From: Minisyncoccota bacterium
GTDB taxonomy: Bacteria; Patescibacteriota; Minisyncoccia; Phycocordibacterales; Phycocordibacteraceae
Direction of reading: 5' to 3'
Assembly: GCA_035627655.1 (NCBI GenBank)
Contig: DASPLI010000001.1
Location: 259,355 to 323,354 of the forward strand
DNA: 64,000 nt
Shown here one piece after another: positions 6,121 through 60,877 of the stretch (position 1 is the stretch's first letter; the number at the start of each line of letters is the position of its first letter). The notes beneath the pieces are model-generated. The model ran no database searches and had not been told where the DNA came from. It worked only from the letters and a program-made list of their open reading frames with translations. The translations under genes were made by a program, and so were the position numbers.

Positions 6121-6130
6121 CGTTCCATAC

Positions 6131-6165
6131 AAAAACAGCCCGCACGTGCGGGCTGTTTTTGTTTT
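6131..6165. terminator. Bidirectional intrinsic terminator (CAGCCCGCACGTGCGGGCTG + TTTTTGTTTT)
   Basis: Perfect 8-bp GC stem with T-run; also marks left edge of low-GC island. Confidence 0.8.
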
Positions 6166-6169
6166 CAGG

Positions 6170-6529: not shown

Positions 6530-6534
6530 ATTTC

Positions 6535-24270: not shown

Positions 24271-24279
24271 TAAAGAACA

Positions 24280-24310
24280 AGCTCCGCAATCGCGGGGCTT
24301 TTTCTTTTCT
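24280..24310 (+). terminator. Intrinsic terminator directly after rplB (unusual position: S10 operon normally continues into rpsS)
   Basis: AGCTCCGC-AATC-GCGGGGCT + TTTTCTTTTC. Confidence 0.7.
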
Positions 24311-24349
24311 TGTATACTGCCGGCAGACTTGTACGAAAGGAAACAAGCA

Positions 24350-25192
24350 ATGACCGCGATACGCATCAAAGAGCTCGCGGAGATCGGACTGGTGTACATC
24401 AGTTACCCGCCCGAGCTGCGTGCTGCCATGGCAAAAGCAATGGAGTCCTGGAGAGTGTTCTACGCGCTCCCGGATGAGCAGAAGCTTCGCTTCGGCTATA
24501 TTCCTGACGCCAAGACGAGCGGCAACGGCTACGAACTCAAAGGCAAGGCCGGCGATGTGGACCGTAAAGAGAACATTCACCTGCGCCCCATCGTTCGCGA
24601 CGAGCTTATGGAGGCAGCGCATCGCGTTGACTCGGTGATCGCTCCGCGGTTCATCGAAGACGCGCTTGCCTTGAATCCGCTCATCGCTCCGCTCTTGCGA
24701 GCGTTTGGTGAAGCGGTTGAACGCGAGTACGACGTGCCCGGGTTCGCCGACGACATTATGGCCAAGCAGTCCGAATGGTTGCTGCGGTTCCTGCACTATC
24801 CGGGAGGCCGCAAGGTGGGCGAGGTGATCGCGCATCCGCATGTCGACAAAGGAGGATTCTCACTTCACCTCGACGAAAGTCATGGTGGCGTGCAGCGCCT
24901 CTCCTACGGCACGCGGGAGTGGGAACCGATGCCGCTCTCTCACAAGGAGACGGCCATCTTCACCGGTACCGGACTTCAGCATCGTTCGCAATGTCGCTTG
25001 CGTGCACTCAGCCACCGCGTGGTGGCGGTGCCGGGTGCTGCTGAAGAAGGTCGGGATTCCGCTGTCTGCTTCGTCGACTTTGCGCATCGCCGCTACTTCA
25101 ACAAAGAGAAGTTCGGCTCGCAGCAAGACTGGGCGCCAGGCGCGTTCTACGACATGCCGTTTGAAGAATACGACAAGCTCTTCATTGACTAA
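24350..25192 (+). CDS. 2-oxoglutarate/Fe(II)-dependent oxygenase superfamily protein (isopenicillin-N-synthase-like)
   Basis: HPHVDKGGFSLHLD (HxD) ... LSHRVV (distal His) pattern; ATG 24350 after GAAAGGAAACAAGCA. Confidence 0.55.
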   Translation: MTAIRIKELAEIGLVYISYPPELRAAMAKAMESWRVFYALPDEQKLRFGYIPDAKTSGNGYELKGKAGDVDRKENIHLRPIVRDELMEAAHRVDSVIAPRFIEDALALNPLIAPLLRAFGEAVEREYDVPGFADDIMAKQSEWLLRFLHYPGGRKVGEVIAHPHVDKGGFSLHLDESHGGVQRLSYGTREWEPMPLSHKETAIFTGTGLQHRSQCRLRALSHRVVAVPGAAEEGRDSAVCFVDFAHRRYFNKEKFGSQQDWAPGAFYDMPFEEYDKLFID

Positions 25193-25195
25193 GGA

Positions 25196-25233
25196 AACGG
25201 CCCGGGATACTCCCCGGGCCGTTCTCTCGTTTA
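25196..25233. terminator. Bidirectional hairpin terminator
   Basis: AACGGCCCGGG-ATACTCC-CCGGGCCGTT. Confidence 0.6.
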
Positions 25234-25240
25234 TGACAAG

Positions 25241-26041
25241 TTAGCGGTAGCGAGTCTTGAGAAGATCAGCAAGATCGCTTCGCGAGATGCGTGCTTCCTG
25301 GGTGCCGAGCGCCCATGGGCCAACCTGATACGGCGGGAAGATAAGGACGAGATCGGCACCATCAAGATAGAACGTGGTGAAGTTGCTTATCTGAGCCTCG
25401 GTTCCCGCATCAATCATACTGGTGTCCATCTCCGACTGCGGGATGTTCATCGCCTGCGCAATCTTTGGATAAAGGATGGCACGGGAAGTTTCGGAGAGTA
25501 CAGGGAGGAAGTTTGCGCCCGGGGTAAACAAGTCGTCGATCGTCAGTTCTTCGCCGCTCATGCGGTCAAACGTAAACGTCTTGTAGTAGGCATTCGGATG
25601 CGCACCCATCGTATCGGCATAGATGAGGTAAATGTAAGAGAGCGTTACGGGTGACGTTCGTGTTTCGTACTCCATGCCGAATGCGAACTTCCGATCTCCG
25701 CCAAGACCCATCATATCGATGTCTGCTTGAGTGAGCGTCGCAAGACCGCTGTCCGTCTTGAATTGCGCGATCTGCGCTTCAGCAAAGGTTTTCATGAGTG
25801 CGACGGCAGCTGCATCGGCTTGTGCGCCCGCAGTCGCGCGAAGTGGGGTGTCGCCCGGGTAGGTGACGGCAATTTCGTGGTACTGGCCGTCCTCGGTGAT
25901 GTACTGAGGGCCGGAAACGGAGCTTCCCTCAGGGGCAAGCTCGATACCTGGGGAAGGGCGGGAGAGTACATACCAGAGCACGCCTCCAGCAAGGGCAAGA
26001 ACGACGACTGCAGCAACGACAGGCAAGGGTTTAAGTTCCAT
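25241..26041 (-). CDS. N-terminally membrane-anchored protein with DUF3298/DUF4163-like (RsiV C-terminal-like) domain
   Basis: GAHPNAYYKTFTFDRMSGEELTIDDLF pattern typical of DUF3298. Confidence 0.5.
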   Translation of the reverse strand: MELKPLPVVAAVVVLALAGGVLWYVLSRPSPGIELAPEGSSVSGPQYITEDGQYHEIAVTYPGDTPLRATAGAQADAAAVALMKTFAEAQIAQFKTDSGLATLTQADIDMMGLGGDRKFAFGMEYETRTSPVTLSYIYLIYADTMGAHPNAYYKTFTFDRMSGEELTIDDLFTPGANFLPVLSETSRAILYPKIAQAMNIPQSEMDTSMIDAGTEAQISNFTTFYLDGADLVLIFPPYQVGPWALGTQEARISRSDLADLLKTRYR

Positions 26042-26111
26042 ATACGTTCCATCATAGCCTACCTTGACTTTGTCTTGAAAATGTCGTAAACCGCGGACAG
26101 CACTTGCTTTT

Positions 26112-26130
26112 TCTGTCTACTTAGTGTACA
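26112..26130. promoter_or_regulatory. Palindromic candidate operator TAGTGT-N7-ACACTA in divergent promoter region upstream of PP2C gene
   Basis: Same half-sites and spacing as site upstream of pnuC (49709-49727). Confidence 0.45.
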
Positions 26131-26218
26131 AATGACACTAGGTAGCGAAATGGCGCTGCAGTTCCTTGAAAGGACCCATAACCCATTGCATCTAATCAAT
26201 TGAAAGGGGGTTGATCCC

Positions 26219-27052
26219 ATGGAGCTACTTCCGTTCTCGGTCGCCGGCGGTTCAGTCCCCGGTACCGAGCACACCAAGCCAGGGCAACCCGGCTGGACCA
26301 ACAACCAAGACGCATTCGCATGGTCGCAGGTACCAGGCGCACTTGCCGCTGTCGTTTGTGACGGCTGCGGAGGCGCGCCAAAGAGCGAAGTTGGGTCGCA
26401 GCTCGCTGCACCCTTCATCGCCTTGCGGCTCGCAGAACTGTGTCGAAGCATGAGCGTCGATGAGGCGCTCCTACTCGTCAATCTTCAGTTGAAGAATTTC
26501 TTGAGTGCGACCGCCAACCACTTGGCGCACAGCGTTCATGATGTTCCCAACATCGCAGGTGACTACTTCCTGTTCACGGTGCTCGGCGTCGTCATGACGC
26601 CCGAGCGTACCGTGATCTTTGAAGCGGGGGATGGCGTCTACGCCGTAAATGGCGAAGTCGTATGCATCCCGCCTTATCCCGATAACGCGCCGCCCTACTT
26701 GGGGCATCGTCTGACGGGGTGGTATCCGCAAGAGAAGATCGGTATTCGCATCCGTGCGGATCTGCCGACAGCGAAGGTCAACACCATTCTTATCGGCACC
26801 GACGGAGTCGCAGACGCGATAGCCGTCGCCGATGAGTTACTTCCCGGCAAACGACAGGGAGAGGTTTTCGGACCGATCCAACAATTTGTCGAGAACGATC
26901 TCTTCGTTCGTAATCCAGACGCAATTCGTCGGCGCCTCGCGCTTGCGAATCGCGAGCTGGTAGACGGAGAACATATCAAGAAAGGTCTGCTGCCAGACGA
27001 CACGACTCTCGTTGTCGTGCAGCGGCGGATCGAAGGAGGCAGCAATGCCTGA
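26219..27052 (+). CDS. PP2C-family (PPM) Ser/Thr protein phosphatase
   Basis: GxxHxxNQD, VCDGCGG, GTDGV, DDTTLVVV blocks; RBS AAGGGGG. Confidence 0.75.
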   Translation: MELLPFSVAGGSVPGTEHTKPGQPGWTNNQDAFAWSQVPGALAAVVCDGCGGAPKSEVGSQLAAPFIALRLAELCRSMSVDEALLLVNLQLKNFLSATANHLAHSVHDVPNIAGDYFLFTVLGVVMTPERTVIFEAGDGVYAVNGEVVCIPPYPDNAPPYLGHRLTGWYPQEKIGIRIRADLPTAKVNTILIGTDGVADAIAVADELLPGKRQGEVFGPIQQFVENDLFVRNPDAIRRRLALANRELVDGEHIKKGLLPDDTTLVVVQRRIEGGSNA

Positions 27053-28910
27053 CTATGTCATCAACGGCAGAACGCTTACGCTTCGGCCAAAAGACGCAGT
27101 CGGGAAGGGAGGAGAAGCGGACGTCTTCATCGAAGGCGGACGCGCGATCAAGATCTACAAGTCGCCGCGTCACCCGGACTTTACGGGCGACCCTGAAGCG
27201 CAAGCTGCGGCGCGCGATCGGATCGAAGAGCATCAGCGAAAACTCCCCGCATTCCCGCGCGGGCTTCCGGGGCGAGTCATCGTCCCGTCGGAGCTCGTGT
27301 ACGACACACACGGTCGCATTGCCGGCTACAGCATGAAGCCCCTCTTGGGTGCTGAAGTACTGTATCGGTACGGCGAACGTTCCTTCCGCGATGCCGGCGT
27401 CAAAGACGAAACGGCGGTCGCGGTTCTTGCCGACCTTCGCGGCACGGTAGAAGCCGTGCATAACGCGAATGTCGTCATCGGCGATTTCAACGACCTCAAC
27501 GTACTCGTCCTCGGACGAAACGCGCATCTGATTGACGCAGACAGCATGCAGTTCGGATCGTTCTATACGCGCGTGTTCACGACGAAATTCGTGGACCCGC
27601 TCATCTGCGATCCGAGAGCGAAGGCGCTCATCATGCGGGAGCCGCACAACAAAGCTTCCGACTGGTACGCCTACGCTGTCATGCTGATGCAGACACTACT
27701 GTTCGTAGGACCCTATGGCGGCGTGTATGCGCCGCAGGATCCTACCAAGCGGATTCCGCACGATCTGCGGCCGCTTCGGCGGGTGACGGTGTTTGACGGA
27801 GACGTCAGATATCCGAAACCTGCACGCCACTACCGCATCCTTCCGGATGACCTTCTCGAGTACTTCAAAAAAACCTTCGAGAAGGACGAACGCGTCGTGC
27901 CGCCTGCGCGCCTCGTCGAGAGCCTCCGGTTCACGACGTGTGCAAAGTGTGGCACCAATCATGCGCGGGCTCACTGCCCGTCCTGCGTGCACGTTACGGC
28001 GCCCATGCAGAAGGAAGTCCATAAAGGAGGCATCTCTGCCTTCAAGGAATTCTCGACTGACGGCGTCATACTGCATGCAGTGCTTGATCGCGATACGTTG
28101 CGGTTCGTTTATCACGACACGCAGATGTATCGGCGGGAGGATGGTTCTGAGCTCGCTTCTGGCGCGCTTGATCCACACTTCCGTTACCGCATTAGCGGCA
28201 CCAAAACGATCATGGGTCGCGGCGAACACGCCATCGTCTTTGACGGTGGGCGTCGCGATCAACTTGCAGTTGAGTCCTACGGACTCTTGCCCCTCTTCGA
28301 CGCCAACGCGAAGAACGTGTTCTTCGTGCGCGACGGAGGGTTGTGGCGTATCGGCACGCTCGGGATCTCGTATCCTGAGCGCTACGGAGACGTGCTTTCC
28401 GGCCAGACGCTGTTCTGGGTCGGAGAGCAACTTGGTTTCGGTTTGTATCGGGCGGGGGAGCTCTCACGCTTCTTCGTCTTCGATGCGAATCGAGCGGGTA
28501 TCAACGATTCGGTCAAACTTCCGCCGCTACGGGGGAAGATCGTCGATGCGACTTGTTCCTTCGGCGATGATCGGATCTGGTTCCTTGTCTCGACCGCTTA
28601 CGGCGGGAAGACGACGAACTACTGCTACGTCCTCGACGGACGAGGCGCACTCCTTGGACAGGCCGAAGCAGAAGCCGGAGACGGCAGCTGGCTCTCGACT
28701 CTCCGAGGCAAGTGCGCAACGAAAGGATTTCTCCTTGCGGCGACGGACGAGGGCGTAACGCGGATTGAATCCGCTAACGGTCTTGTTCAAGTCGCGAAGG
28801 AGTTTCCTGCGACTGCTGAGTTTGTCGACGCCGAAACGCGGTTGCTCCTTGGTTCCCAAGGGCTCTATGCGATTCGGCGCGGCGAAATCTGGAAACTAGT
28901 CCTCAAATAG
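27045..28910 (+). CDS. Protein-kinase-like (PKL/APH-type fold) protein with central CxxC...CxxC zinc ribbon and C-terminal beta-rich domain
   Basis: VGKGGEADVF...AIKIYK (Gly loop + Lys), HNANVVIGDFNDLNVLV and IDADS catalytic-like blocks; ATG overlaps PP2C stop (ATGCCTGA) after GAAGGAGG. Confidence 0.6.
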   Translation: MPDYVINGRTLTLRPKDAVGKGGEADVFIEGGRAIKIYKSPRHPDFTGDPEAQAAARDRIEEHQRKLPAFPRGLPGRVIVPSELVYDTHGRIAGYSMKPLLGAEVLYRYGERSFRDAGVKDETAVAVLADLRGTVEAVHNANVVIGDFNDLNVLVLGRNAHLIDADSMQFGSFYTRVFTTKFVDPLICDPRAKALIMREPHNKASDWYAYAVMLMQTLLFVGPYGGVYAPQDPTKRIPHDLRPLRRVTVFDGDVRYPKPARHYRILPDDLLEYFKKTFEKDERVVPPARLVESLRFTTCAKCGTNHARAHCPSCVHVTAPMQKEVHKGGISAFKEFSTDGVILHAVLDRDTLRFVYHDTQMYRREDGSELASGALDPHFRYRISGTKTIMGRGEHAIVFDGGRRDQLAVESYGLLPLFDANAKNVFFVRDGGLWRIGTLGISYPERYGDVLSGQTLFWVGEQLGFGLYRAGELSRFFVFDANRAGINDSVKLPPLRGKIVDATCSFGDDRIWFLVSTAYGGKTTNYCYVLDGRGALLGQAEAEAGDGSWLSTLRGKCATKGFLLAATDEGVTRIESANGLVQVAKEFPATAEFVDAETRLLLGSQGLYAIRRGEIWKLVLK

Positions 28911-28939
28911 GTTGAGGACCATCACAACGGAGACGTAAC

Positions 28940-30028
28940 ATGGCTCAATCTGTAGCCAGACAACTTCCCACCCCGCCGCTCTTCAATCCGAAGAACGCGG
29001 GCAACTGGGGCTATCGCCCCGACCAGCGTGCAATCTTCGAAACCGCCGCTGCCTGGAAAGGCCAACACGGTCTCAAGGCAGCGCGGCTCGATGGACAAAA
29101 AGTCATGCTGCTGCTGATCGACGTGCAGAAGGACTTCTGCCATCCGGAAGGCGCCCTCTACGTGGGCGGCCGGTCGGGTCGCGGTGCGATCGACGACTCG
29201 GCGCGCATTGCCGAGTTCATCTATCGCAATCTGAACGTCGTCTCCGACATCGCGACGACCTTGGATACGCACTTCGCGTACCAGATCTTCTCGCCGTCAT
29301 TCGTCGTCGACGAGAGCGGACAGCCGCTCAAGCCGTTCGACGTCGTGCTTGAAAACTGCGACATCATGCGCGCGGGCGTGTGCGTCGGGAAGGCTTCGGT
29401 CAGCCCGGCCGCCGCCGCGGTCGTCGCCAACGGCGACTACGCGACGCTGCAAAAGCAGTTCGAGTATTACTGCAAGACGCTTGGCCAAGGCGGCAAATAC
29501 AACCTCATCATGTGGCCCGAGCACTGCTTGCTCGGGTCCGAGGGCCACACCCTGGTCGGCGTCATTCACGAAGCGCGTCTCTTCCACGCGTACGCCCGCG
29601 CCTCGCAGTCGCACTGCGAGATCAAGGGCGGCAGCCCGTACACCGAGAACTACTCGGTGCTACAGCCGGAAGTGATGACCACGTTCGACGGCAAAGCCCT
29701 CCCGGGCGTGCAGAAGAACGCGCGATTCATCAAAATGCTGCTCAACTACGACCGCGTTATCGTCGCGGGCCAGGCGGGCAGTCACTGCGTGAAGAGTTCG
29801 ATCGACGACTTCCTCGCGGAAATCGTCGTGCAGGACCCGGCGCTTGCGCGCAAGGTCTACGTGCTCGAAGACTGCATGTCCGCAGTCACCGTGCCTGACG
29901 GCAAGGGCGGTTTCATCGCCGACTACACGCCGGACATGGACGCCGCGCTCGCCAAATTCGGCAACGCCGGCATGCATGTCGTGAAGTCCACAACGCCAGT
30001 CTCCGACTGGCCGGGCTTCCTGCAGTAA
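28940..30028 (+). CDS. pncA: Nicotinamidase (isochorismatase-fold), long form
   Basis: LLLIDVQKDFC, DTH metal site, IVAGQAGSHCVKSS catalytic Cys block closely parallel to E. coli PncA motifs. Confidence 0.7.
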   Translation: MAQSVARQLPTPPLFNPKNAGNWGYRPDQRAIFETAAAWKGQHGLKAARLDGQKVMLLLIDVQKDFCHPEGALYVGGRSGRGAIDDSARIAEFIYRNLNVVSDIATTLDTHFAYQIFSPSFVVDESGQPLKPFDVVLENCDIMRAGVCVGKASVSPAAAAVVANGDYATLQKQFEYYCKTLGQGGKYNLIMWPEHCLLGSEGHTLVGVIHEARLFHAYARASQSHCEIKGGSPYTENYSVLQPEVMTTFDGKALPGVQKNARFIKMLLNYDRVIVAGQAGSHCVKSSIDDFLAEIVVQDPALARKVYVLEDCMSAVTVPDGKGGFIADYTPDMDAALAKFGNAGMHVVKSTTPVSDWPGFLQ

Positions 30029-30102
30029 CGGTCATCCGGGCGTGTGCGGCGAGAGTAATCTCGCCGCATGGGCCCATCACATCAACCAGGGAAGGACATC
30101 CC

Positions 30103-30888
30103 ATGAACTCAACTGACGTTGGCGCTCTATTTAGCGCCGCAGGTAAAGACGGAACGCTCTCCAAAGGAGCGCTCTCGGTGCTCGACGCCGAAGACATCGG
30201 CGCCGTGATCAACCAAGGACTCGGCATCACACCCGACGACATCACTGCAAGCGAGGTCAACAACGTGTTCATGCTGCTCGACGACTCCAGTTCGATCGAG
30301 CATGCGGGCAACACGCAGCATGTTCGCGACGGGCACAACCTGATCGTGGACTCGCTACTGAAGACCAAGCAGGCGGATGCCATCATCATGTGCGGTCGCG
30401 CCCTCAATCGCGGGCAGATCTACCCGTGCGTTCGCCTCCCGGATGTGCCGCGTCTTGACGCGAGCAACTACAATCCGTCGGGCGGCACGCCGTTGTATGA
30501 CGAATCGACGATCATTCTCGGCATGGCGGCCGCCAAGCATCAGCAGTTTGCTGACAATGGCGTGCCGTGCCGGACGATCGTGCCGATCATCACCGACGGC
30601 GCCGACGTGGGCTCCCGCAAGCAGCGGCCAGACCACGTGCGGACCATCGTGCAAGATCTTCTGCGCACCGAGCAGTTCATCGTGATCGGCGTCGGCATCG
30701 ACGACGGCGTGACGAACTTCCGGTCGGTGTTCCAAAGCATGGGCATCGACGACCGCTGGATCCTGACCCCAGGCAATTCGCCAAGCGAAATTCGCAAGGC
30801 GTTTGCGATGGTGTCCCAGTCGGTATCGCGTGCGAGCCAGAACGCGCAAGCGTTCAGCACGGCTGCAATGGGCGGGTTTGCGGGGTAA
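30103..30888 (+). CDS. von Willebrand factor A (vWA) domain protein, TerY-like
   Basis: MIDAS DxSxS (LLDDSSSI), GGTPL, ITDGAD. Confidence 0.75.
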   Translation: MNSTDVGALFSAAGKDGTLSKGALSVLDAEDIGAVINQGLGITPDDITASEVNNVFMLLDDSSSIEHAGNTQHVRDGHNLIVDSLLKTKQADAIIMCGRALNRGQIYPCVRLPDVPRLDASNYNPSGGTPLYDESTIILGMAAAKHQQFADNGVPCRTIVPIITDGADVGSRKQRPDHVRTIVQDLLRTEQFIVIGVGIDDGVTNFRSVFQSMGIDDRWILTPGNSPSEIRKAFAMVSQSVSRASQNAQAFSTAAMGGFAG

Positions 30889-30921
30889 GATCCGCAGACC
30901 TCGGGTCCTGTTCTTTACAGG

Positions 30922-30946
30922 AAGCAGGAGGAGCATGATGCTCCTC
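30922..30946. repeat. Near-perfect 25-bp palindrome CAGGAGGAGCAT-G-ATGCTCCTCCTG
   Basis: 12-bp inverted arms around single central base. Confidence 0.6.
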
Positions 30947-30960
30947 CTGCAATCCTCGCT

Positions 30961-31024
30961 GAGATTCCTTCGGGAATCTCCTTTATAGGAGGCTTGAATC
31001 CTTCGAGCCTCCTTCAAGGAGAGA
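30961..31024 (+). promoter_or_regulatory. Structured leader element copy A (outer TCTCCTT/AAGGAGA helix enclosing GGAGGCT...AGCCTCC hairpin; 3' arm overlaps ARH RBS)
   Basis: Paralogous to 32039-32088 with compensatory stem substitutions. Confidence 0.5.
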
Positions 31025-31029
31025 GTTCT

Positions 31030-31992
31030 TTGCAACAACAGATCTCGCTCATCGAACGCTATCGCGGCGCGATGATTGGCGTACATGTCGGAGATGCGCT
31101 TGGGGCACCATACGAAACGTGGCCCGAAGAACGTATTCTCGCGGACATGCAGGCGCGCGACGGGCTCGTGCTCTTCGACTACGAAGACCCGTGGGGTAAG
31201 GACGGCCTCTTTCCGGCCGGATGCCCGACGGACGACTCGGAGTTGACCGCCGTACTCGCCGAACATCTTATTGAGAACCCAGAAGATCTTGAAGATCTCT
31301 ACGCACGCTTTCGCAGCTGCGTGGTGGATCGCAAGAGCCGCTTGTGCGCGCTTCCAGCATATGGATTTGGCGGCACAACGCGACGGGCGCTCAAGGAGCC
31401 GACGTATCGGGAAGCAGTTCAGCAGCCTAATACGCGGCCGCCGATTCCAAGCAACGGAGCGTTGATGCGGGCAGTGCCGATACCGCTTCGGTTCTTCGGT
31501 AGTCCGCGACAGGTCTCCGACTGCGCGTACGTTACATCGCTTATGACGCACCGGCATCCGCAAGCCATCGACGCATCCGTCGTCTATGCGCATCTGCTCT
31601 ATGGCGTTCTCGAACACGGGAACTACGAGCAGGCGGTCGCACGACTCGTCGGCATGTTGCCCGGTCTCACTGTCGACCAGGCGATTATCGACATCTTCCA
31701 TTCGCCGGCTCAAAAACCGGTGTTTGAAGGAAAGTTCGGCGGCGGCGCGCTCCATACACTTTGTGTGGTGCATTGGGCCGTCTCGACATCCACTTCCTTT
31801 GAAGAGGGGATGACGAAAGCAATCACGATCGGTAGTGATACCGATACGTACGGCGCGGTCGCTGGCGGTCTCCTCGGCGCCACCTACGGTGTACGAGGGA
31901 TCCCAGCCAAGTGGAAACATGGATTGCTTGGCGGCGTTCGTATGTGGCAGCTTGCTGAGAAGCTGCATGCGCTCGCCAATCCAGCGTCGTAA
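31030..31992 (+). CDS. ADP-ribosylglycohydrolase family protein (DraG/ARH-like)
   Basis: IERYRGAMIGVHVGDALGAPYE N-terminal signature, DDSELT, GSDTDTYGAVAGGLLGATYG C-terminal signature; likely TTG start at 31030 after AAGGAGAG (ORF-track start 30994 also TTG). Confidence 0.75.
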   Translation: MQQQISLIERYRGAMIGVHVGDALGAPYETWPEERILADMQARDGLVLFDYEDPWGKDGLFPAGCPTDDSELTAVLAEHLIENPEDLEDLYARFRSCVVDRKSRLCALPAYGFGGTTRRALKEPTYREAVQQPNTRPPIPSNGALMRAVPIPLRFFGSPRQVSDCAYVTSLMTHRHPQAIDASVVYAHLLYGVLEHGNYEQAVARLVGMLPGLTVDQAIIDIFHSPAQKPVFEGKFGGGALHTLCVVHWAVSTSTSFEEGMTKAITIGSDTDTYGAVAGGLLGATYGVRGIPAKWKHGLLGGVRMWQLAEKLHALANPAS

Positions 31993-31996
31993 TGCG

Positions 31997-32024
31997 TGGT
32001 GTGCGGGCCTTCGGGCCTGCACAC
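31997..32024 (+). other. GC hairpin with UUCG loop (GTGTGCGGGCC-TTCG-GGCCTGCACAC) after ARH gene
   Basis: 10/11-bp stem, no T-run. Confidence 0.4.
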
Positions 32025-32038
32025 TCCGCTTGTTCTAG

Positions 32039-32088
32039 CGAGATCTCCTTTATGGAGCGTTTGAGTTTCTCGAACGCTCCTCAAGGAA
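32039..32088 (+). promoter_or_regulatory. Structured leader element copy B upstream of nadE
   Basis: GAGATCTCCTTTATGGAGCGTTTGA...TCGAACGCTCCTCAAGGAAA; stem GGAGCGTT/AACGCTCC. Confidence 0.5.
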
Positions 32089-32142
32089 ATTGTGATCTTT
32101 GAGAACTATCGAACTCACCACTTCTAACAGAAGGAGGACTAC

Positions 32143-34014
32143 ATGCTTGGTTCACCGGTCCGGATCGTCGTCGCGCAAGTGGGGGCGGTTCCGGGTGATG
32201 TTGCGACCAACTTCGCAAACATATTCGACACGATTGCGACTGCGCGACGCGCGGCCGCCGATATCGTGGTGTTGCCGGAGCTTGCAACCACGGCATATGT
32301 GCTCGGCGATCGCTGGGAATACGACGCGTTCATTCGCGAAACCCAAGAAATCAACGAGCGGATCCGCGAAGCCTCCCGAGGACTCACTGTCATCTGGGGC
32401 TCGATCAAAGCGGATTTCGGCAAGATGGGCGAAGACGGTCGCGTGCGAAAATACAACGCCGCCTTCATCGCATCTCACGGCCGCTGGATCTCAAACGGCA
32501 CGCTGGACGGGTTCGTTCCCAAGACGAATCTGCCTAAGTACCGCATCTTCGACGATGCGCGCCACTTCTACCCGGCGGGGAAACTCGCCGCGGAAATGCA
32601 GACGCGTCTTGAAACGCTGCTCGCACCCTTCCCGCTGGTCATCAAAGGCAAGCGCTACAACATTGCGCTCTCTGTCTGCGAAGACCTCTGGCAGGACGAG
32701 TACAACGAGAAACCGGCGCAGATCTACAGTGCGCACGACTCCGATCTCATCATCGACATCTCGTGCTCGCCGTGGACGTACGGCAAGTGGCATGCGCGCG
32801 AAAATATGCTGAAGCGCCGCGTGAAGGACACGGGCATCCCGATCCTCTACGTGAACGCGATCGGCCTCGAAAACAACACCAAGAACTTGATTTGGTTCGA
32901 TGGCGACTCAGCGCTCATCGACGCCGAAGGACGGTTCCGGTGGCGCGGCCAACAGCACAAAGAGCAGATCCACATCCTCGATCTCGATGATCTCGACGGC
33001 CCACTCCCTGAGCGGACCTATACGGGTATCAAAGAGATTCACGACGCGACAGTCGCGGCAATGAAAGCCTTCTACGCTCCGTTCGCACGGGTCGTCGTCG
33101 GGCTTTCAGGCGGCATCGATTCGGCGCTCGCGCTCGCGCTTCTCACCGAAGCGCTCGGCGCCAAGCGACTGCTTGCGGTCAACATGCCGACCGAGTTCAA
33201 CTCGGAAACTACCCGAGGACTCGCAGCGCTCTGCGCTCGGAACCTCGGTGTCGAGTACGTCATCTCTCCGATCCAAGAAGCGTACGAGGAAGAACTTCGT
33301 GCGCTTCAAAAGCTCGGCATGACGCCGTCCGCACTCGATCGGGAAAACATCCAGGCAGTCTTGCGCGGCACGCGTCTCAACGCGATCGCCAAAGCGCAAG
33401 GCAGTATGCATGGCGGCGCCGGCGCATTCACCTGCAACGGCAACAAGACCGAGATGGCCCTCAACTACTTCACCCTCTATGGGGACGGAGCGGGCGCTGC
33501 GGCCTTTCTAGCCGATCTCTGGAAGGGTCAGATCTACGAGCTTGCACGCTACATCAACGAGCGTGCGGGCCGCGAGCTGATCCCGCAAGGGATTCTCGAC
33601 ATCGTGCCGTCGGCGGAACTCTCGAAGGATCAAGCGGTCGATGAGGGGAAGGGAGATCCTATCTTCTTCCCGTATCACGACCAGCTCCTGCGGGCGTTCA
33701 CCGAACTGCGCTGGGATCCGACCACGGTGCTCGAGCACTTGTGCGAAAGCAACGAGGCGCTCGAGCAGAAGCTCGGCTGTGCTCCCGGCACCGTCGCTCG
33801 GTACTTCAACTCGCGCCGCACGCTCGTCGATAACCTCGAATGGGCGTGGCGCCAGTACAACACCGAGTTCAAGCGCGGACAGACGCCGCCGGTCTTCCTC
33901 ACGTCGCGCCGAGCCTTCGGGTTCGACCGACGCGATACGATCGCCGCGGGATACCTGACGAAGCGCTACCAAGAACTCAAGCAAGCGTACTTGGCCGGCG
34001 AACTCGTCGCGTGA
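32143..34014 (+). CDS. nadE: Glutamine-dependent NAD+ synthetase (N-terminal CN-hydrolase/nitrilase domain + C-terminal NAD synthetase domain)
   Basis: 623 aa; nitrilase-type N-domain; GLSGGIDSAL PP-loop in C-domain; RBS AGGAGG. Confidence 0.88.
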   Translation: MLGSPVRIVVAQVGAVPGDVATNFANIFDTIATARRAAADIVVLPELATTAYVLGDRWEYDAFIRETQEINERIREASRGLTVIWGSIKADFGKMGEDGRVRKYNAAFIASHGRWISNGTLDGFVPKTNLPKYRIFDDARHFYPAGKLAAEMQTRLETLLAPFPLVIKGKRYNIALSVCEDLWQDEYNEKPAQIYSAHDSDLIIDISCSPWTYGKWHARENMLKRRVKDTGIPILYVNAIGLENNTKNLIWFDGDSALIDAEGRFRWRGQQHKEQIHILDLDDLDGPLPERTYTGIKEIHDATVAAMKAFYAPFARVVVGLSGGIDSALALALLTEALGAKRLLAVNMPTEFNSETTRGLAALCARNLGVEYVISPIQEAYEEELRALQKLGMTPSALDRENIQAVLRGTRLNAIAKAQGSMHGGAGAFTCNGNKTEMALNYFTLYGDGAGAAAFLADLWKGQIYELARYINERAGRELIPQGILDIVPSAELSKDQAVDEGKGDPIFFPYHDQLLRAFTELRWDPTTVLEHLCESNEALEQKLGCAPGTVARYFNSRRTLVDNLEWAWRQYNTEFKRGQTPPVFLTSRRAFGFDRRDTIAAGYLTKRYQELKQAYLAGELVA

Positions 34015-34159
34015 CGTTCGATGTGCAGGAGGGTTTCGGCCCTCCTGCATACCGTCCTTTCCTCGGGAAAGGACTTCGTATGGGGCGCCTAAGCAGATGC
34101 TTGGACGCCGCAACGGAGTTACAGATCTTTTTCACCTATAGACAACAGAAAGGAAACCA

Positions 34160-35527
34160 ATGACTGACTTCGTGGGGCGCGTACTGCGTCCTGAAAAAGA
34201 CGATTGGGTAATCCGGTCGCTTCTCGACGTGGACTTTTACAAGTTCACGATGGGGCTCTTTATCTTCCTGCTGCATCGCGGCGTGGAGGTGGAGTTCTGC
34301 CTGATCAACCGAAACCTAAAGCTTCCCCTCGCCGATATCGTCGACGAGGAGGAGCTTCGGCGACAGCTCGATCACGTGCGTACGCTGTGCCTCTCGCGCA
34401 CGGACGTCGTGTACTTGCGTGGCCAGGATGTGTACGGGCACAACATGTTCCCGGAAAACTATCTGGCGTTCTTGCGGCAGCTCGCGCTGCCCGAGTACAC
34501 GCTTCGGCGCGTCGGCAATCAGTATGAGCTGAAGTTCAAGGGTTCGTGGGAAACGGTGACGTTTTGGGAAACCATCGCGCTCGCCATCATTTCGGAACTC
34601 TTCTACCGCGCGCTCATGCAGTCGATGCCTGAGCACGAATTGCGCGTGCTATTTGGCCGCGCGATTGATCGCCTCTATCGGAAGCTCGAGAAGCTCAAGA
34701 CGCGTCCCTGGATTCGGTTCGCCGATTTCGGGCAGCGTCGCCGCTTCAGCTTCCTCTGGCAGCGGTTCGTTGATCAGACGTGTCGCGAGGTCGTGCCGCA
34801 GCAATTTGTGGGGACCAGTAACACCTGGATGGCCTTCAATCAGGACTTGGTGCCCATCGGTACCAATGCGCACGAGCTTCCCATGGTCCTCACCGCGCTT
34901 GCGGAGGGGGACGAAGCGAAGCGGTACGCGCAGTATCAGGTGCTCAGGGAGTGGGGAGGCATGTTCCCGCAAAACGCCCTGCGCATCATGCTGCCGGATA
35001 CCTACGGCTCCGAGCAGTTCTTCCAGAACATGCCGGCCGATCTTGCCGAAGAAGTTGCCGAAACCTGGCGCGGCCAGCGTCAGGATTCGGGCGATCCGAT
35101 CACGGAATGCCGCCGCTACACATCGTGGCTGCGCGGTTATATCCAGCCGGCACGCATTCGTTCAGAGCGCCTCAACATCTTTTCCGACGGCCTCGACATC
35201 GATCCCATCTTTGAGTTCGATGACCAGGTCAGAGACGAGATCCTCATCTCAAACGGGTGGGGTACGACGCTCACGAACGACTTCATCGATTGCCATCCGC
35301 GACCAGACGACCGTGCGGTCGTGCGCGGCAAAACGCTCGAGCTGACGAACCGTCAGTTGTGGCGTGGGCACTCGATCGTCTGCAAAGTCGAGTACGCCAA
35401 CGGGCGTCCGGCGGTAAAACTTTCAAACAACATTAACAAGGCGACCGGTCCTTCCAAGGAAGCGATCGCCGAGTACGTGCGCATCTTTGGCAACGAAGGT
35501 CGCGCAGCGCAGGATGTTGTCGTCTAA
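34160..35527 (+). CDS. pncB: Nicotinate phosphoribosyltransferase
   Basis: SLLDVDFYKFTMG, FGQRRRFS, GTSNTW, QDSGDP blocks align with E. coli PncB. Confidence 0.88.
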   Translation: MTDFVGRVLRPEKDDWVIRSLLDVDFYKFTMGLFIFLLHRGVEVEFCLINRNLKLPLADIVDEEELRRQLDHVRTLCLSRTDVVYLRGQDVYGHNMFPENYLAFLRQLALPEYTLRRVGNQYELKFKGSWETVTFWETIALAIISELFYRALMQSMPEHELRVLFGRAIDRLYRKLEKLKTRPWIRFADFGQRRRFSFLWQRFVDQTCREVVPQQFVGTSNTWMAFNQDLVPIGTNAHELPMVLTALAEGDEAKRYAQYQVLREWGGMFPQNALRIMLPDTYGSEQFFQNMPADLAEEVAETWRGQRQDSGDPITECRRYTSWLRGYIQPARIRSERLNIFSDGLDIDPIFEFDDQVRDEILISNGWGTTLTNDFIDCHPRPDDRAVVRGKTLELTNRQLWRGHSIVCKVEYANGRPAVKLSNNINKATGPSKEAIAEYVRIFGNEGRAAQDVVV

Positions 35528-35574
35528 AAATACTTGAACCCCCTACGCGAACATGTTCGCGTAGGGGGTTCTTT

Positions 35575-36462
35575 TTATGGTCGTGTGCGAGTCAGGAGTC
35601 GATGACCAAGCGTGTGGTGCCAGGGCACCAAGCGCTCGATCAGCGCATCGCGCTTCACCCAGTGGACGCTATCCGCGTCGTCTGCCGCAGTGGGCGTACC
35701 GGAGAGGTACGTGCCACGGAAGAAGGTGGTCGTGATGCCGTCCGTGCTGTTGCGATAGCGAGGATCGTTGATCGGGTCTGACCCCAACCACGTGAGTTCG
35801 CTGATCTCAACGCCCGGCACTTCTTCGCCAAACTCGCGCGGAGCGGCGTCTTCGTCGCGTTCGCCGACATTGACGTGTCCGCCCGGGAAGGACAACAGAC
35901 CTTCGTGCCGATTCTTGCCGATGAGAAGTACCTCATCGGTCGACGGCCGTTCGATCGCGATGTCGACCGTGCGGAACGCAATCGGATACCGACTGTTTAC
36001 CTGCCAGATCGCCGCGTCGCGCGCGTCCCGGGTATTCATGAGTCGCGCCGACTTCCGCAGGGCGGTGCCGCTTTCGCGCGCATCTTCCGACGCAAGCTCA
36101 ACGGTCGGGAATGTGCCCGAGTAGAGCGGTAGGAAGCTGTCGCGCGATCCGTAGAGGGTGATCGGGTTGAATGGAAATTCTTTCCGGATCAGTGCATCCA
36201 GATCGCGCGACCAGAAGGTCGGGTTGATCGGATGATCGAAGATCTCAAGGATCTTCGCCCGCGGATACGCGGATTTCATCATGTCCCGCCGCGCTTCGAA
36301 GGGAAGCGGGTTTTCCCGCGTCGCCTGACCTCCGGTAGAGGCAAGGACGACGAGCAGGTAGGCATGATTGTCGCGAGCGGTGTTGAGCACATGCAAATGG
36401 CCGCGGTGAAGATAGGGCACTTGGAAGCGTCCTACCACCACCCCAACCGATGGCAGTCCCAT
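35575..36462 (-). CDS. nadM: Bifunctional nicotinamide/nicotinate mononucleotide adenylyltransferase - Nudix (ADP-ribose pyrophosphatase) fusion, NadM-Nudix type
   Basis: N-term GVVVGRFQVPYLHRGHL (HxGH nucleotidyltransferase), C-term Nudix box GGHVNVGERDEDAAPREFGEEVPGV; ATG 36460-36462 after AAGGAGA. Confidence 0.75.
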   Translation of the reverse strand: MGLPSVGVVVGRFQVPYLHRGHLHVLNTARDNHAYLLVVLASTGGQATRENPLPFEARRDMMKSAYPRAKILEIFDHPINPTFWSRDLDALIRKEFPFNPITLYGSRDSFLPLYSGTFPTVELASEDARESGTALRKSARLMNTRDARDAAIWQVNSRYPIAFRTVDIAIERPSTDEVLLIGKNRHEGLLSFPGGHVNVGERDEDAAPREFGEEVPGVEISELTWLGSDPINDPRYRNSTDGITTTFFRGTYLSGTPTAADDADSVHWVKRDALIERLVPWHHTLGHRLLTRTRP

Positions 36463-36475
36463 GGCATTTCTCCTT

Positions 36476-36491
36476 TTCTTGCTAGAAAGAA
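36476..36491. promoter_or_regulatory. 16-bp palindrome TTCTTGCTAGAAAGAA abutting nadM Shine-Dalgarno
   Basis: 7/8 matched inverted half-sites. Confidence 0.35.
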
Positions 36492-36495
36492 CGGA

Positions 36496-36524
36496 TGAAA
36501 AAAGGCAGGCTGGAATGCCTGCGC
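36496..36524 (-). terminator. Hairpin + U-run (minus orientation) between nrtR-like gene and nadM (terminator or attenuator)
   Basis: GCAGGC-ATTCCA-GCCTGC followed by TTTTTTCAT on minus strand. Confidence 0.55.
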
Positions 36525-36562
36525 TTTCTGTATTCAATCGTAAAAAAGGGGGAGTGTCAATG

Positions 36563-37249
36563 TTACAGCACCTCGATTTCCTTCACGTCCTTGGATGCAA
36601 ACGTATAGAGCTGGGCAGGGCGGGAACGGCCCCCGCGACGCTTTTTCGGGAGTTCCTTCAGGATCCCGAGCTTGAGGATTTTCTTGCGGAAGTTTCGCTT
36701 GTCGAGATCGCGCTCCAAAATGCATTCATAGGTGCGCTCAAGCTCGGTGAGCGTGAATTCCTCAGGCATCAGCTGTGCGATGAGGGTGGTGTACGTGATG
36801 CGCGAGCGCAGGCGCGCCCGGGCCGCTGCAAGCACTTCGTTGTGATCGTAGGCGAGGGTTGTCTTTTCGTGTGCCGGGCTCCACCAGGAATCGTCTGTGT
36901 CTTTGCGCTCCTCCTCCGTCAGGGCATCCCAGGGGACGCAGGCGATATAAGCGACCGCAACCGCCCGGCTGCGGGGGTCTCGATTCACTGCGCTGAAGGT
37001 CGCCAGCTGCTCCATATAGATGTGGGAGGAGGAAATGCCGGTACGACCCTTCAGGTGGCGAATAGCGGCCTCTTCAGCCGTTTCTGTGGCATCCAGGAGA
37101 CCTCCGGGAAGGCCGGGGACCCCCGGGAAGTGGGGTGGGCGGTTCACCCGGATGAGGCGGACCAAGAGGGTCGCCTCCCGAATCGTAAAGAGCGCGATGT
37201 CCGCAGCAAGGACCGCAAACCGCAACGGCTCCGGATTTTGAGGGGTCAT
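36563..37249 (-). CDS. nrtR: Nudix-related transcriptional regulator (NrtR-like: degenerate Nudix domain + C-terminal winged-helix)
   Basis: Degenerate Nudix box GLPGGLLDATETAEEAAIRHLKGRTGI (catalytic Glu positions altered), basic helix-rich C-terminus; gene context with NAD salvage genes. Confidence 0.55.
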   Translation of the reverse strand: MTPQNPEPLRFAVLAADIALFTIREATLLVRLIRVNRPPHFPGVPGLPGGLLDATETAEEAAIRHLKGRTGISSSHIYMEQLATFSAVNRDPRSRAVAVAYIACVPWDALTEEERKDTDDSWWSPAHEKTTLAYDHNEVLAAARARLRSRITYTTLIAQLMPEEFTLTELERTYECILERDLDKRNFRKKILKLGILKELPKKRRGGRSRPAQLYTFASKDVKEIEVL

Positions 37250-37292
37250 ATGGACACTATAGCAAGGCGCCAGGCCGAATGATACGAAAAGT

Positions 37293-37347
37293 TTGACATA
37301 CCTTCGCGTTTCCTATAGATTTTGCGTATCCGCCTCAGGCGGCTTTT
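37293..37347 (+). promoter_or_regulatory. Promoter TTGACA-N17-TAGATT and leader hairpin CCGCC-TCA-GGCGG + CTTTT upstream of rpsS
   Basis: Consensus hexamers 37293-37298 / 37316-37321. Confidence 0.55.
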
Positions 37348-37355
37348 GACTACTC

Positions 37356-37694
37356 ATGTCCCGCTCACTCAAGAAAGGACCCTACGTCGACGTCAAGTTG
37401 ATGAAGAAGGTTAAAGACAAGAAACCCGCATCCGCTGGGGTTATTCGAACATGGGCGCGCCAGTCGCAGATTGCGCCTGAGTTCGTCGGCTTTACCTTTG
37501 GCGTCCATAACGGCAAGACGCACGTGGATGTCCTCGTCACCGAGGATATGGTCGGCCACAAGCTTGGCGAATTCTCGCCAACCAAGAAGTTCCTCCGTCA
37601 CGGCGGAAAGATGCAGAAGGAGCTTGAGCAAAAGAAGAAGGAGGCTGAGATTGCCGCTGCAAAGGCGTCAAAGTCAGAGCCGGCTAAGAAATAA
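37356..37694 (+). CDS. rpsS: 30S ribosomal protein S19 with Lys-rich C-terminal extension
   Basis: Canonical S19 core. Confidence 0.93.
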
Positions 37695-49689: not shown

Positions 49690-49727
49690 CAGCCTCTTCC
49701 CTATCAGTTAGTGTAGATTATACACTA
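49686..49727 (+). promoter_or_regulatory. pnuC promoter (TTGACA-N17-TAGTGT) overlapped by 21-bp palindrome TTAGTGTAgATtATACACTAA
   Basis: TAGTGT-N7-ACACTA at 49709-49727 overlapping -10. Confidence 0.55.
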
Positions 49728-60803: not shown

Positions 60804-60877
60804 TCCACCCGCTTGGACTCGAACCAAGGACCGCCGAGGTATAAGCTCGGAGCTCTAACCAACTGAGCTACGGGTGG
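60804..60877 (-). tRNA. tRNA with anticodon UAU (reads AUA; tRNA-Ile(UAU)-like), CCA not encoded
   Basis: rc = CCACCCG UA GCUC AGUUGGUUAG AGC U CCGAG CUUAUAC CUCGG CGGUC CUUGG UUCGAGU CCAAG CGGGUGG A; all four stems pair. Confidence 0.75.

Follow-up and report, generated by a model that had tools for sequence, protein, structure and literature searches.

An ADP-ribosylglycohydrolase gene as a regular member of the predicted NrtR regulon for NAD salvage in Patescibacteria

Study of a 64,000-nucleotide stretch of the genome of a Minisyncoccota bacterium (contig DASPLI010000001.1 of assembly GCA_035627655.1; hereafter the window, in whose own numbering all positions are given) revealed that its ADP-ribosylglycohydrolase (ARH) gene, at 31030-31992 on the + strand, is, as judged from predicted operators, a regular member of the regulon by which the Nudix-related repressor NrtR controls the salvage of nicotinamide adenine dinucleotide (NAD). 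Our favoured explanation, towards which the balance tips slightly, is a general circuit in which this NrtR-regulon enzyme frees ADP-ribose from α-linked conjugates. The finding itself comes from a comparison of related loci. A scan of one genome per species, from which the best 80 loci were kept, gave 22 species-level loci of Patescibacteria with an orthologue at 33-62% identity, and linkage of neighbours was then assessed by tblastn with the window proteins in a 10-kb range. A gene for NrtR, NadE, PncB or NadM was found within 10 kb of the ARH orthologue in 21 of the 22 loci; the sole exception (L009) is a contig of only 3.8 kb, which still shows two box-like sites 5′ of the ARH gene. Clustering of the open reading frames (ORFs) of 23 orthologous loci, with 20 kb taken for each where the contig allowed, returned as recurrent families NrtR (15 loci), NadE and PncB (14 each), a Ser/Thr-kinase-like protein (12), a nicotinamidase-like protein and NadM (11 each), together with two PP2C clusters (8 and 4 loci) and an unannotated cluster of about 250 aa at the position occupied by the vWA gene in L005 (7 loci). 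Also recurrent are PnuC, NadR, NadV, phosphoribosyl pyrophosphate synthetase (Prs), a NadD-like gene, a GNAT acetyltransferase in 6 loci and a number of clusters lacking annotation. No ADP-ribosyltransferase (ART), sirtuin or macro family is recurrent in these 23 loci, nor does any nuclease, Macro or NADAR module recur among the neighbours of the ARH gene.

The second line of evidence is provided by the operators. Published NrtR operators are 21-bp palindromes with the core GT-N7-AC (PMC2330246), which the motif of the window, TTAGTGTA-N5-(G/T)ACACTA, fits. The 64 kb contain two perfect TAGTGT-N7-ACACTA sites. One of them (cTTAGTGTACAAATGACACTAgg, 26122-26140) lies in the 177-bp region 5′ of the PP2C gene and heads a string of seven + strand genes, in the order PP2C, kinase, nicotinamidase-like, vWA, ARH, NadE and PncB, with no strong terminator inside; strong terminator-like sites are found only after rplB (24279-24300), after an oxygenase gene (25196-25223) and after pncB (35536-35571), the last being a bidirectional terminator between pncB and nadM in which a perfect palindrome (18+18 nt) is flanked by T-runs. 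Given the operator at the head and the lack of an internal strong terminator, PP2C through pncB can be read as one NrtR-controlled unit, and we infer co-transcription of these genes from a promoter at 26122. The other site (gTTAGTGTAGATTATACACTAAc, 49709-49727) lies 14 nt 5′ of pnuC and overlaps a -10-like TAGTGT located 17 nt past a TTGACA. It would place the nicotinamide-riboside route under the same regulator, pnuC and the following nadR-like gene being the predicted second NrtR-controlled NAD-salvage unit of the genome. In the related loci, an operator is found at most 200 nt 5′ of the ARH gene itself in seven cases (L008, L009, L020, L023, L024, L025 and L026) and 5′ of the first gene of a string made of the kinase-containing cassette plus ARH in nine (L005, L006, L007, L010, L013, L017, L019, L022 and L023), so that 15 related loci in all have conserved operators 5′ of ARH or of its operon. 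Over the 380 kb of the 22 loci, 17 perfect sites and 44 sites with one mismatch or better were counted, against 0.03 and 1.0 expected from composition-matched shuffles.

The ARH gene begins at a TTG codon (31030), with the Shine-Dalgarno sequence AAGGAGAG located 6-7 nt upstream, and finishes with a TAA ending at 31992. When genes were called independently on the source contig, the same 320-aa product was obtained, and a public collection holds an identical protein (P0001). An alternative start at the in-frame TTG 30994 was discarded, the N-termini of the orthologues fitting TTG 31030 instead. An earlier note, made from the sequence of the window, had recognized a DraG/ARH-family enzyme here, and rightly so: the protein matches Pfam PF03747 (ADP_ribosyl_GH) over its full length (profile positions 1-286 of 287, E = 1.5e-55, 189.3 bits for a cut-off of 26.2). 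In an alignment of 27 orthologues, which are 38-61% identical to the window protein, the invariant residues include D22, E29, T67-D68-D69, G112, G114, N142-G143, M146, T173-H174 and D270-x-D272-T273. From the structures of ARH3 and DraG we take E29, T67-D68-D69 and D270-x-D272-T273 to be the ligands of two metal ions. The ADP-ribose-binding loops (G-x-G-x-T, S/G-N-G-x-x-M-R and T-H) are also present, T116 and R147 joining the residues just listed as invariant or nearly so. These motifs align with GDAlgA..E, TDD, NG..MR, TH and GGD.DT of five solved relatives, the closest being the Thermus thermophilus ARH (2cwc; E = 1.3e-22 with the single sequence and 3.3e-44 with a 27-sequence profile), followed, in the order of the profile search, by Tri1 (6dre; 2e-17 and 5.7e-41), Listeria Lmo0067 (8za7; 1.6e-14 and 5.4e-38), MJ1187 (1t5j; 2.1e-15 and 3.3e-37) and DraG (2woc; 3.8e-15 and 3.6e-34). 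The earlier note had named two ways in which its assignment could fail, loss of the metal-coordinating Asp/Thr residues and a crystallin-like pseudo-enzyme; since the binuclear-metal site is intact, and the ADP-ribose motifs with it, both fall away, and the protein is apparently, as judged by its active site, a catalytically competent ADP-ribosyl-acceptor hydrolase.

This enzyme is neither DraG proper, since it scores 79 bits against the DraG equivalog TIGR02662 (cut-off 337), nor a Tri1-type immunity hydrolase, since it scores 82 bits against the Tri1 equivalog NF041672 (cut-off 490); we file it under the PF03747 superfamily and the NrtR regulon, not as DraG or Tri1. Two features are conserved throughout the 27 orthologues. 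One is a clade-specific insert, GGLv.FDY.DPW, between the first two motifs. The other is G112 (around 31363-31365) in YGFGGTT, an invariant Gly where DraG (‘PVDVGNT’) and Tri1 or Lmo0067 (‘FDIG’) carry an Asp, and where the Thermus 2cwc protein has a Gly likewise. That Asp (D97 in DraG) is needed for DraG activity according to mutagenesis. With Gly in its place, the patescibacterial clade may not handle arginine adducts as DraG does, and its acceptor specificity may be different.

The NAD genes next to ARH form most of a pathway. NadE (32143-34014, +; 623 aa, PF00795 and PF02540) is a glutamine-dependent NAD synthetase that matches NF010588 (2e-94, 317 bits) below the curated cut-off of 479 bits and passes that of the nadE domain model TIGR00552 (109.5 versus 63.65 bits). 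PncB (34160-35527, +; 455 aa, PF17767 and PF04095) is a nicotinate phosphoribosyltransferase, again under the curated cut-off of its model (NF003704, 1.5e-100, 337 versus 379 bits). The opposite strand encodes a fusion of a NadM-like adenylyltransferase with a Nudix hydrolase (35575-36462, -; 295 aa as called, PF01467 and PF00293), which is matched by PRK05379-type models far under their cut-offs and has the motif GRFQ..HRGH and a near-canonical Nudix box, GHVNVGE-x7-REFGEE. NrtR (36563-37249, -; 228 aa) combines a winged-helix domain (PF21906 NrtR_WHD, 3.6e-25) with a Nudix domain (PF00293) whose box is degenerate (RHLKGR); the two boxes would reflect the usual split between enzyme and sensor. 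Further away are pnuC (49741-50436, +; PF04973 NMN_transporter) and the nadR-like gene (50429-51400, +; PF13521 AAA_28 and a faint CTP_transf_like match); some 2 kb 3′ of the latter follows the gene for another AAA_28 (NadR-kinase-like) protein, of 360 aa, at 53259-54341 (+). Between the kinase and vWA genes, the long-form nicotinamidase-like cysteine hydrolase (28940-30028, +; 362 aa, weak Isochorismatase and PRK11609 matches) probably provides the PncA step, as suggested by sequence and by a structural model. Together with PncB, NadM and NadE it would probably complete a route from nicotinamide to NAD, of which the nicotinamidase assignment is the weakest link. The neighbours agree with their description in the earlier note (a signalling triad, here PP2C, kinase and vWA, an NAD-producing pathway with NAD synthetase, nadM-Nudix and an NrtR-like regulator); the nicotinamidase-like gene inside the triad had gone unmentioned.

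How the ARH enzyme may act within this regulon can be outlined as follows. NAD-consuming reactions would leave nicotinamide and an α-linked ADP-ribosyl conjugate, which might be a modified side chain of a protein or else a small molecule (O-acetyl-ADP-ribose or α-NAD+, for example). Cleavage of the C1″ bond by ARH would give free ADP-ribose, the presumed inducer, which would lift NrtR off its operator; such a release has been observed in vitro with two NrtR proteins, those of Synechocystis and Shewanella oneidensis (PMC2330246). In this way ARH activity would relieve the repression both of its own operon and of pnuC-nadR. NAD would then be rebuilt from nicotinamide by the nicotinamidase-like enzyme, PncB, NadM and NadE, the de-repressed regulon would also import nicotinamide riboside, and the Nudix domain of NadM, by destroying ADP-ribose, would reset the switch. 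If so, bound ADP-ribose becomes, through the ARH step, a signal as well as a metabolite that can be salvaged, and we infer that no dedicated transferase partner would be needed. As for the conjugate, a protein substrate is favoured by the nearest characterized relatives, by the vWA, kinase and PP2C partners and by the predicted orphan systems built around ADP-ribosylglycohydrolases (PMC9503650); a small-molecule substrate is favoured by a purely metabolic context in 12 of the 22 loci, by ordinary divergence, by the Gly at the position of the DraG Asp and by the lack of a linked writer.

Several points weigh against this circuit. Four related loci (L014, L015, L016 and L025) have NAD genes with no NrtR gene detected within range. 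The leader of the window ARH has no NrtR box at up to 3 mismatches and contains stable hairpins and a weak terminator-like site (30889-30907). An orthologue in 22 Patescibacteria species among the best 80 loci, a sample which is not a census, looks more like an accessory island than a core function. The sensing of ADP-ribose by the NrtR of the window is extrapolated from the Synechocystis and S. oneidensis proteins, the organism is uncultivated, and the function of the ARH clade is read from sequence. Finally, no source of ADP-ribosyl conjugates is evident in this 0.74-Mb genome, as far as the 64 kb viewed are concerned.

The general scheme of the earlier note was a write-erase-recycle logic complete apart from the transferase. 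The recycling part is supported by linkage in 21 of 22 genomes and by NrtR operators at the operon or at ARH. The write-erase part with a missing cognate transferase is not: no ART, sirtuin or macro family recurs in the 23 loci, and the divergence of ARH and the invariant Gly at the DraG/Tri1/Lmo0067 Asp also count against it. No transferase was detected in the window itself, in line with the earlier note; none of its called genes has an ART, sirtuin or macro Pfam match, some 25 small ORFs being without any Pfam match, and neither DraT nor NifH turned up, be it here or among the related loci. The divergence can be judged from the Parcubacteria genome C7867-001 (L006), where the same gene order is found at a chromosomal site outside the ribosomal operon. 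Identity between the two genomes is 56% for ARH, compared to 62% for NadE, 55% for PncB, 52% for NadM and 64% for NrtR, and hence there is no sign of unusually fast evolution of ARH; for the kinase, the nicotinamidase-like protein, the vWA protein and PP2C it is 77, 76, 64 and 59%, respectively. An additional gene of C7867-001, of the Nuc_deoxyri_tr2 family (PF15891; L001/L006, around 15507-15959, -), lies between the Nudix gene and nrtR and is absent from the window; the fold family includes N-glycosidases, and another NAD- or ADP-ribose-processing partner is possible. As to the writer, an incoming toxin or phage ART, which the earlier note had suggested and which has also been put forward in print for orphan systems built around an ADP-ribosylglycohydrolase (PMC9503650), is possible, and a small-molecule substrate equally so.

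The leaders of the operon contain a further element, which has to be presented before the alternatives are weighed. Each of the ARH, nadE and pncB genes is preceded by a hairpin of 5+12 bp with GTTCTTT(G) after it, which makes three copies per operon, on the sense strand throughout. Scored with our covariance model (R1), the copy preceding ARH (30975-31033, with the tail GTTCTTTG) reaches 74.2 bits and the copy preceding nadE (32042-32102) 75.4 bits, while the more divergent copy preceding pncB (34070-34132), which was kept outside the seed alignment, reaches 30.8 bits (E = 1.8e-4) and has equivalents in L005, L006, L013 and L026. In the first copy, the 3′ arm of the outer helix is the Shine-Dalgarno sequence of ARH and the tail includes the start codon TTG; a hairpin located upstream (GAGATTCC/GGAATCTC) is a competitor for the 5′ arm of this helix. 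The leaders can be aligned between genomes whose ARH proteins are just 54-62% identical, and in a seed of eight sequences compensatory changes affect 8 of the 17 pairs. The motif was found in seven related loci (L005, L006, L007, L013, L014, L015 and L026), and the extra copies returned by the model, all on the sense strand, occupy these three kinds of site in L013, L014, L015 and L026, while the rest of the window has none. Among 16 copies, 94% of the cells are paired, with double changes at 15 of 17 pairs, a result equalled by none of 500 shuffles and to be set against a maximum of 54% in slid controls; since this alignment was fitted to the model, the pairing counts lean towards structure. 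G-U pairs on the sense strand point to an RNA rather than to a DNA operator. Folding of the leaders compared with shuffles gave z = -6.3 for ARH and z = -6.7 for nadE.

No Rfam family was found for these intergenic hairpins, either in the whole window at the gathering threshold or in 30850-34200 at E up to 10, and there was no match to an NAD riboswitch. A repeat search of 24000-37500 also missed the motif, because its copies differ by indels and compensatory changes; it was spotted by eye and then confirmed by the covariance model. As a genome-wide signal, GTTCTTTG or TTCTTTRCA is not enriched in the window. For a genome of such compactness the spacers, at 140-150 nt, are long, and a GC-rich hairpin of 10-12 bp lacking a U-tract occurs shortly 3′ of the vWA, ARH and nadE stop codons (30924-30950, 32000-32025 and 34024-34049). 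We regard the three-copy hairpin as a candidate new cis-regulatory element. Its role could be that of a regulated attenuator or of a translational control, which is a guess by analogy; the Bacillus pyr operon, with its three PyrR attenuators, would be a precedent.

At this point, more specific explanations may be considered. One is that ARH is a salvage or repair enzyme for small molecules, converting α-NAD+, the dead-end anomer, and/or O-acetyl-ADP-ribose to ADP-ribose (and nicotinamide, in the case of α-NAD+), proteins not being its physiological substrate. The setting is suggestive: the gene belongs to a metabolic regulon in every genome context, including those with only NadV, NadM, PnuC, NadR or Prs, and the products of α-NAD+ hydrolysis would be substrates for the adjacent nicotinamidase-like and Nudix enzymes as well as the NrtR ligand. 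Moreover, ARH1 and ARH3 hydrolyse α-NAD+, with a physiological role that is acknowledged to be open (PMC9738213), and the rate of divergence resembles that of a metabolic enzyme. Against this, no bacterial member of the ARH family has been established as a dedicated small-molecule enzyme, the frequent vWA, kinase and PP2C neighbours suggest events at the protein level, and no sirtuin, the usual source of O-acetyl-ADP-ribose, was seen in the window. The invariant Gly in place of the DraG/Tri1/Lmo0067 Asp would also favour small molecules, although this meaning is carried over from DraG mutagenesis. We therefore hold this explanation to be possible and rather unlikely. The same tentative standing is given to its extended form, in which ARH would be an unrecognized step of NAD salvage (from α-NAD+ or O-acetyl-ADP-ribose to ADP-ribose and nicotinamide) that makes the NrtR inducer and is tuned together with nadE and pncB by the three-copy RNA element.

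Another possibility, to which we give about as little credit, is a countermeasure against foreign ADP-ribosyltransferases, ARH, vWA, PP2C, kinase and the Nudix-type regulator then forming a variant of the ‘ARG-centric’ host systems (ARG, ADP-ribosylglycohydrolase). In such a scheme a phage or host ART would modify proteins, ARH would strip them, the ADP-ribose set free would induce the operon, the vWA protein would bind damaged proteins and the NAD-salvage genes would repair the loss of NAD. A published template exists (PMC9503650), in which an ARG without a coupled ART is accompanied by a vWA chaperone, a phosphatase and a Nudix-HTH regulator, and the window has components of all four kinds. 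The 23 loci show no linked ART, the closest characterized relatives, Tri1 and DraG, act on proteins, and triads resembling TerY-P are known defence modules (PMC11090510). The comparison of loci speaks a different language, however. In 12 of the 22 orthologous loci no kinase is detectable by tblastn and ARH is tied to NAD genes only; in the 10 others, the kinase comes mostly together with the nicotinamidase-like gene. Iyer et al. (2022) do not name a phosphatase of the type present here, a PP2C that comes with a kinase; no nuclease or other effector is present, and the cassette of PP2C, kinase, nicotinamidase-like and vWA genes exists without ARH in Myxococcota. ARH does not diverge fast, and no PADLOC model applies. 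The hallmarks of conflict systems, rapid evolution and variable effector modules, are thus not seen at the ARH locus.

More doubtful still is the idea of an endogenous but unlinked writer, with ARH erasing, in the manner of DraT/DraG, a regulatory ADP-ribosylation set by a transferase encoded elsewhere in the genome, a possible target being an NAD enzyme or one of the triad proteins. The DraG-like fold and the intact active site would suit it, some 680 kb of the genome lie outside the stretch viewed, and the Streptomyces nrtR1-draG unit was filed by Rodionov et al. under ‘reversible protein ADP-ribosylation’ (PMC2330246). But the scores of ARH fall far under the DraG and Tri1 cut-offs, the pairs DraT/DraG and Tre1/Tri1 are normally adjacent, no ART family recurs in the 23 loci, and none of the called genes of the window has a Pfam match of ART, sirtuin or macro type. 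Genomes so small, moreover, seldom keep unlinked regulatory pairs. Lastly, an inactive, crystallin-like paralogue or a chance neighbour deserves next to no credence and was discarded, in view of metal ligands and ADP-ribose-binding motifs invariant in 27 orthologues, of linkage in 21 of 22 genomes and of operators directly 5′ of ARH in seven.

The cassette that accompanies ARH is of interest in itself. It opens with a PP2C-type protein phosphatase (26219-27052, +; 277 aa, PF13672 PP2C_2, E = 1.7e-17). The next protein is Ser/Thr-kinase-like (27045-28910, +; 621 aa as called, in an ORF that opens at 27012); it has no Pfam match and was recognized by its match to the kinase part of LanL model NF038150 (2.2e-07), its translation showing Gly-loop/AIK and DFNDLN/DAD motifs and a CxxC-N8-CxxC zinc ribbon, followed by a long uncharacterized C-terminal region. 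The nicotinamidase-like protein has homologues at 58-60% identity in Myxococcota, and ‘nicotinamidase’ is the name given by NCBI to an identical protein; its invariant residues include D61, K229, C283, D109 and H111. The vWA-fold protein (30103-30888, +; 261 aa) belongs to no Pfam family. Sequence-only searches of the PDB were uninformative for these last two proteins (E of 0.1 or worse), for which reason structure prediction and Foldseek were used. The AlphaFold2 model of the nicotinamidase-like protein is of medium quality (pLDDT of 74.6), and its top three PDB matches are nicotinamidases (2wta, 3v8e and 3r2j), with low TM-scores. That of the vWA-fold protein is better (pLDDT 90.2, predicted TM-score 0.90); its leading matches are vWA and integrin I domains (best E around 1e-6, probability 1.0), and the residues of its metal-ion-dependent adhesion site (MIDAS) motif, D60, S62, S64, T129 and D165, are invariant in 30 homologues. 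A PADLOC scan of ten cluster proteins gave a weak Nudix match alone, with nothing for PP2C, kinase and vWA at E up to 0.01; the cluster is therefore covered by no known model of a defence system.

The order of the cassette varies among relatives. In a second lineage (L004/L005 and L007) it runs nicotinamidase-like, vWA, PP2C, kinase and ARH, and in a Peribacteria locus (L029) an ARH of 27% identity is linked to NadE and the cassette. Outside Patescibacteria, PP2C, a zinc-ribbon kinase, a nicotinamidase-like protein of about 350 aa and vWA are encoded in the same order as in the window in Stigmatella hybrida (L088, 5226-9907) and in a Kofleriaceae genome (L089, 5561-9811); NrtR precedes the Stigmatella cassette and PncB is close by, and ARH is present in neither locus. 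We found no description of a nicotinamidase together with vWA and PP2C, i.e. inside a TerY-P-like triad, in a literature search of incomplete coverage. The best homologues of the window ARH carry the names Parcubacteria, Paceibacterota or Kaiserbacteria. ARH genes at about 30% identity, from Streptomyces, Kitasatospora and Bryobacterales, lack this linkage to NAD genes and NrtR; by relaxed tblastn, NrtR was found beside ARH in two loci only (L037 and L075), and the linkage is therefore not general among the nearest relatives sampled outside the candidate phyla radiation (CPR). So far, the orthologous group of the window ARH appears to be confined essentially to Patescibacteria.

The position of the locus is also peculiar. 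Between rplB and rpsS, the S10 ribosomal-protein operon is broken up by a 13-kb block (24271-37355): tuf, rpsJ, rplC, rplD, rplW and rplB (+) extend up to 24270, and rpsS, rplV, rpsC, rplP and onward (+) resume from 37356, with a good promoter-like site (TTGACA-17-TAGATT) 5′ of rpsS. The block contains a 2OG-Fe(II)-oxygenase-like gene (24329-25192, +), a DUF3298 gene (25241-26041, -), the cassette, ARH, the NAD genes and NrtR. The gap between rplB and rpsS is likewise occupied in L004/L005 and L007, three related genomes having their S10 operon interrupted by the island, and the cluster of C7867-001 sits elsewhere. Nothing indicates that the island came from a mobile element or phage: no integrase or tRNA flank was seen, and its G+C content is barely above that of the flanks. 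Two other observations concern distant parts of the window. The G+C content falls to 0.44 at 6001-8000, compared to 0.54-0.60 elsewhere, over a gene for a 926-aa LCAT-like protein (PF02450; ORF 6535-9315, -), a stretch which may be foreign DNA. A tRNA-Ile with the anticodon TAT (UAU) is encoded at 60803-60877 (-); such tRNAs are uncommon in bacteria, where AUA is usually read by a lysidine-modified CAU tRNA.

Orphan hydrolases of the ARH/DraG family are common in bacteria, and a substrate or purpose is known for almost none of them. The present case offers, in very small genomes, an unusually tight genomic logic, with ARH placed in a presumably ADP-ribose-sensing regulon together with a nicotinamide-to-NAD route and an ADP-ribose pyrophosphatase, and with its own product as presumed inducer. 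The circuit is testable, and it opens the question of a metabolic role of ARH enzymes, on α-NAD+ or O-acetyl-ADP-ribose, beside the de-modification of proteins. Should the small-molecule salvage step tuned by the RNA element prove true, it would be a first physiological context for the hydrolysis of α-NAD+ by ARH enzymes. The locus also gives a view on NAD homeostasis in episymbiotic CPR bacteria that rely on scavenged cofactors. Two further items come to light with it, the cassette of kinase, PP2C, vWA and nicotinamidase that crosses phyla, and the conserved RNA hairpin.

How does this system compare with those already described? Among solved structures, the Thermus thermophilus ARH (2cwc, 2yzv and 2yzw) aligns almost end to end and likewise has Gly where DraG has its Asp, but lacks the FDY.DPW insert. 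With DraG (R. rubrum and A. brasilense) and Tri1 (Serratia), the window ARH shares the fold, the E, TDD and DxDT ligands and the NG..MR and TH motifs; it differs in having Gly (YGFGGTT) for the Asp of ‘PVDVGNT’ or ‘FDIGNT’ and its own insert GGLv.FDY.DPW. DraG and Tri1 are arginine-specific and have adjacent writers, whereas the window ARH has no DraT, Tre1, nitrogenase or type VI secretion context. The TerY-P triad, as summarized in PMC11090510 (after Anantharaman et al. 2012 and Gao et al. 2020), consists of a TerY-like vWA protein, a PP2C and a zinc-ribbon Ser/Thr kinase. Here, too, vWA, PP2C and kinase are encoded together and a zinc ribbon follows the kinase domain, but none of the three has a PADLOC match, the vWA protein falls outside the Pfam families, and the cassette includes a nicotinamidase-like gene and is under or beside NrtR in both Patescibacteria and Stigmatella.

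The closest parallels are two. ‘ARG-centric’ systems are a predicted host answer to ADP-ribosylation by viruses (Iyer, Burroughs, Anantharaman and Aravind 2022, Viruses; PMC9503650, section 3.8), and the window system resembles them in its ARG without a coupled ART or sirtuin, its Nudix-HTH regulator proposed to sense ADP-ribose, its phosphatase, its vWA ‘chaperone’ and the same induction loop. However, they are known from actinobacteria, planctomycetes and proteobacteria instead of Patescibacteria, their phosphatases are of the rhodanese-type, calcineurin-like, HD or HAD kind and not a PP2C with a kinase, they have nuclease, Macro, NADAR or ARPP modules, which are absent here, and they lack NAD-salvage enzymes, which are here the most constant partners. 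The other parallel is the Streptomyces unit nrtR1-draG-SCO1765, filed as ‘ADPR’ and lying apart from NAD genes (Rodionov et al. 2008, NAR; PMC2330246). Both systems have an ARH/DraG gene by NrtR, behind a GT-N7-AC operator and with no transferase, and in L008 and L024 ARH and nrtR are even adjacent; in Patescibacteria, unlike Streptomyces, ARH shares an operon or regulon with PncA-like, PncB, NadE, NadM, PnuC and NadR proteins. The window ARH is about 30% or less identical to the actinobacterial ARH matches recovered, and their loci are without NrtR by tblastn. In a literature of which our coverage was incomplete, nothing was found on an ADP-ribosylglycohydrolase with Parcubacteria or with ‘NAD salvage’ and operon, and full-text search brought up NrtR and ADP-ribosylglycohydrolase together only in Iyer et al. 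(2022). The linkage of NrtR with draG in Streptomyces and the orphan ARG systems are thus already known; what is new is an ARH that shares the predicted NrtR regulon with NAD salvage in Patescibacteria.

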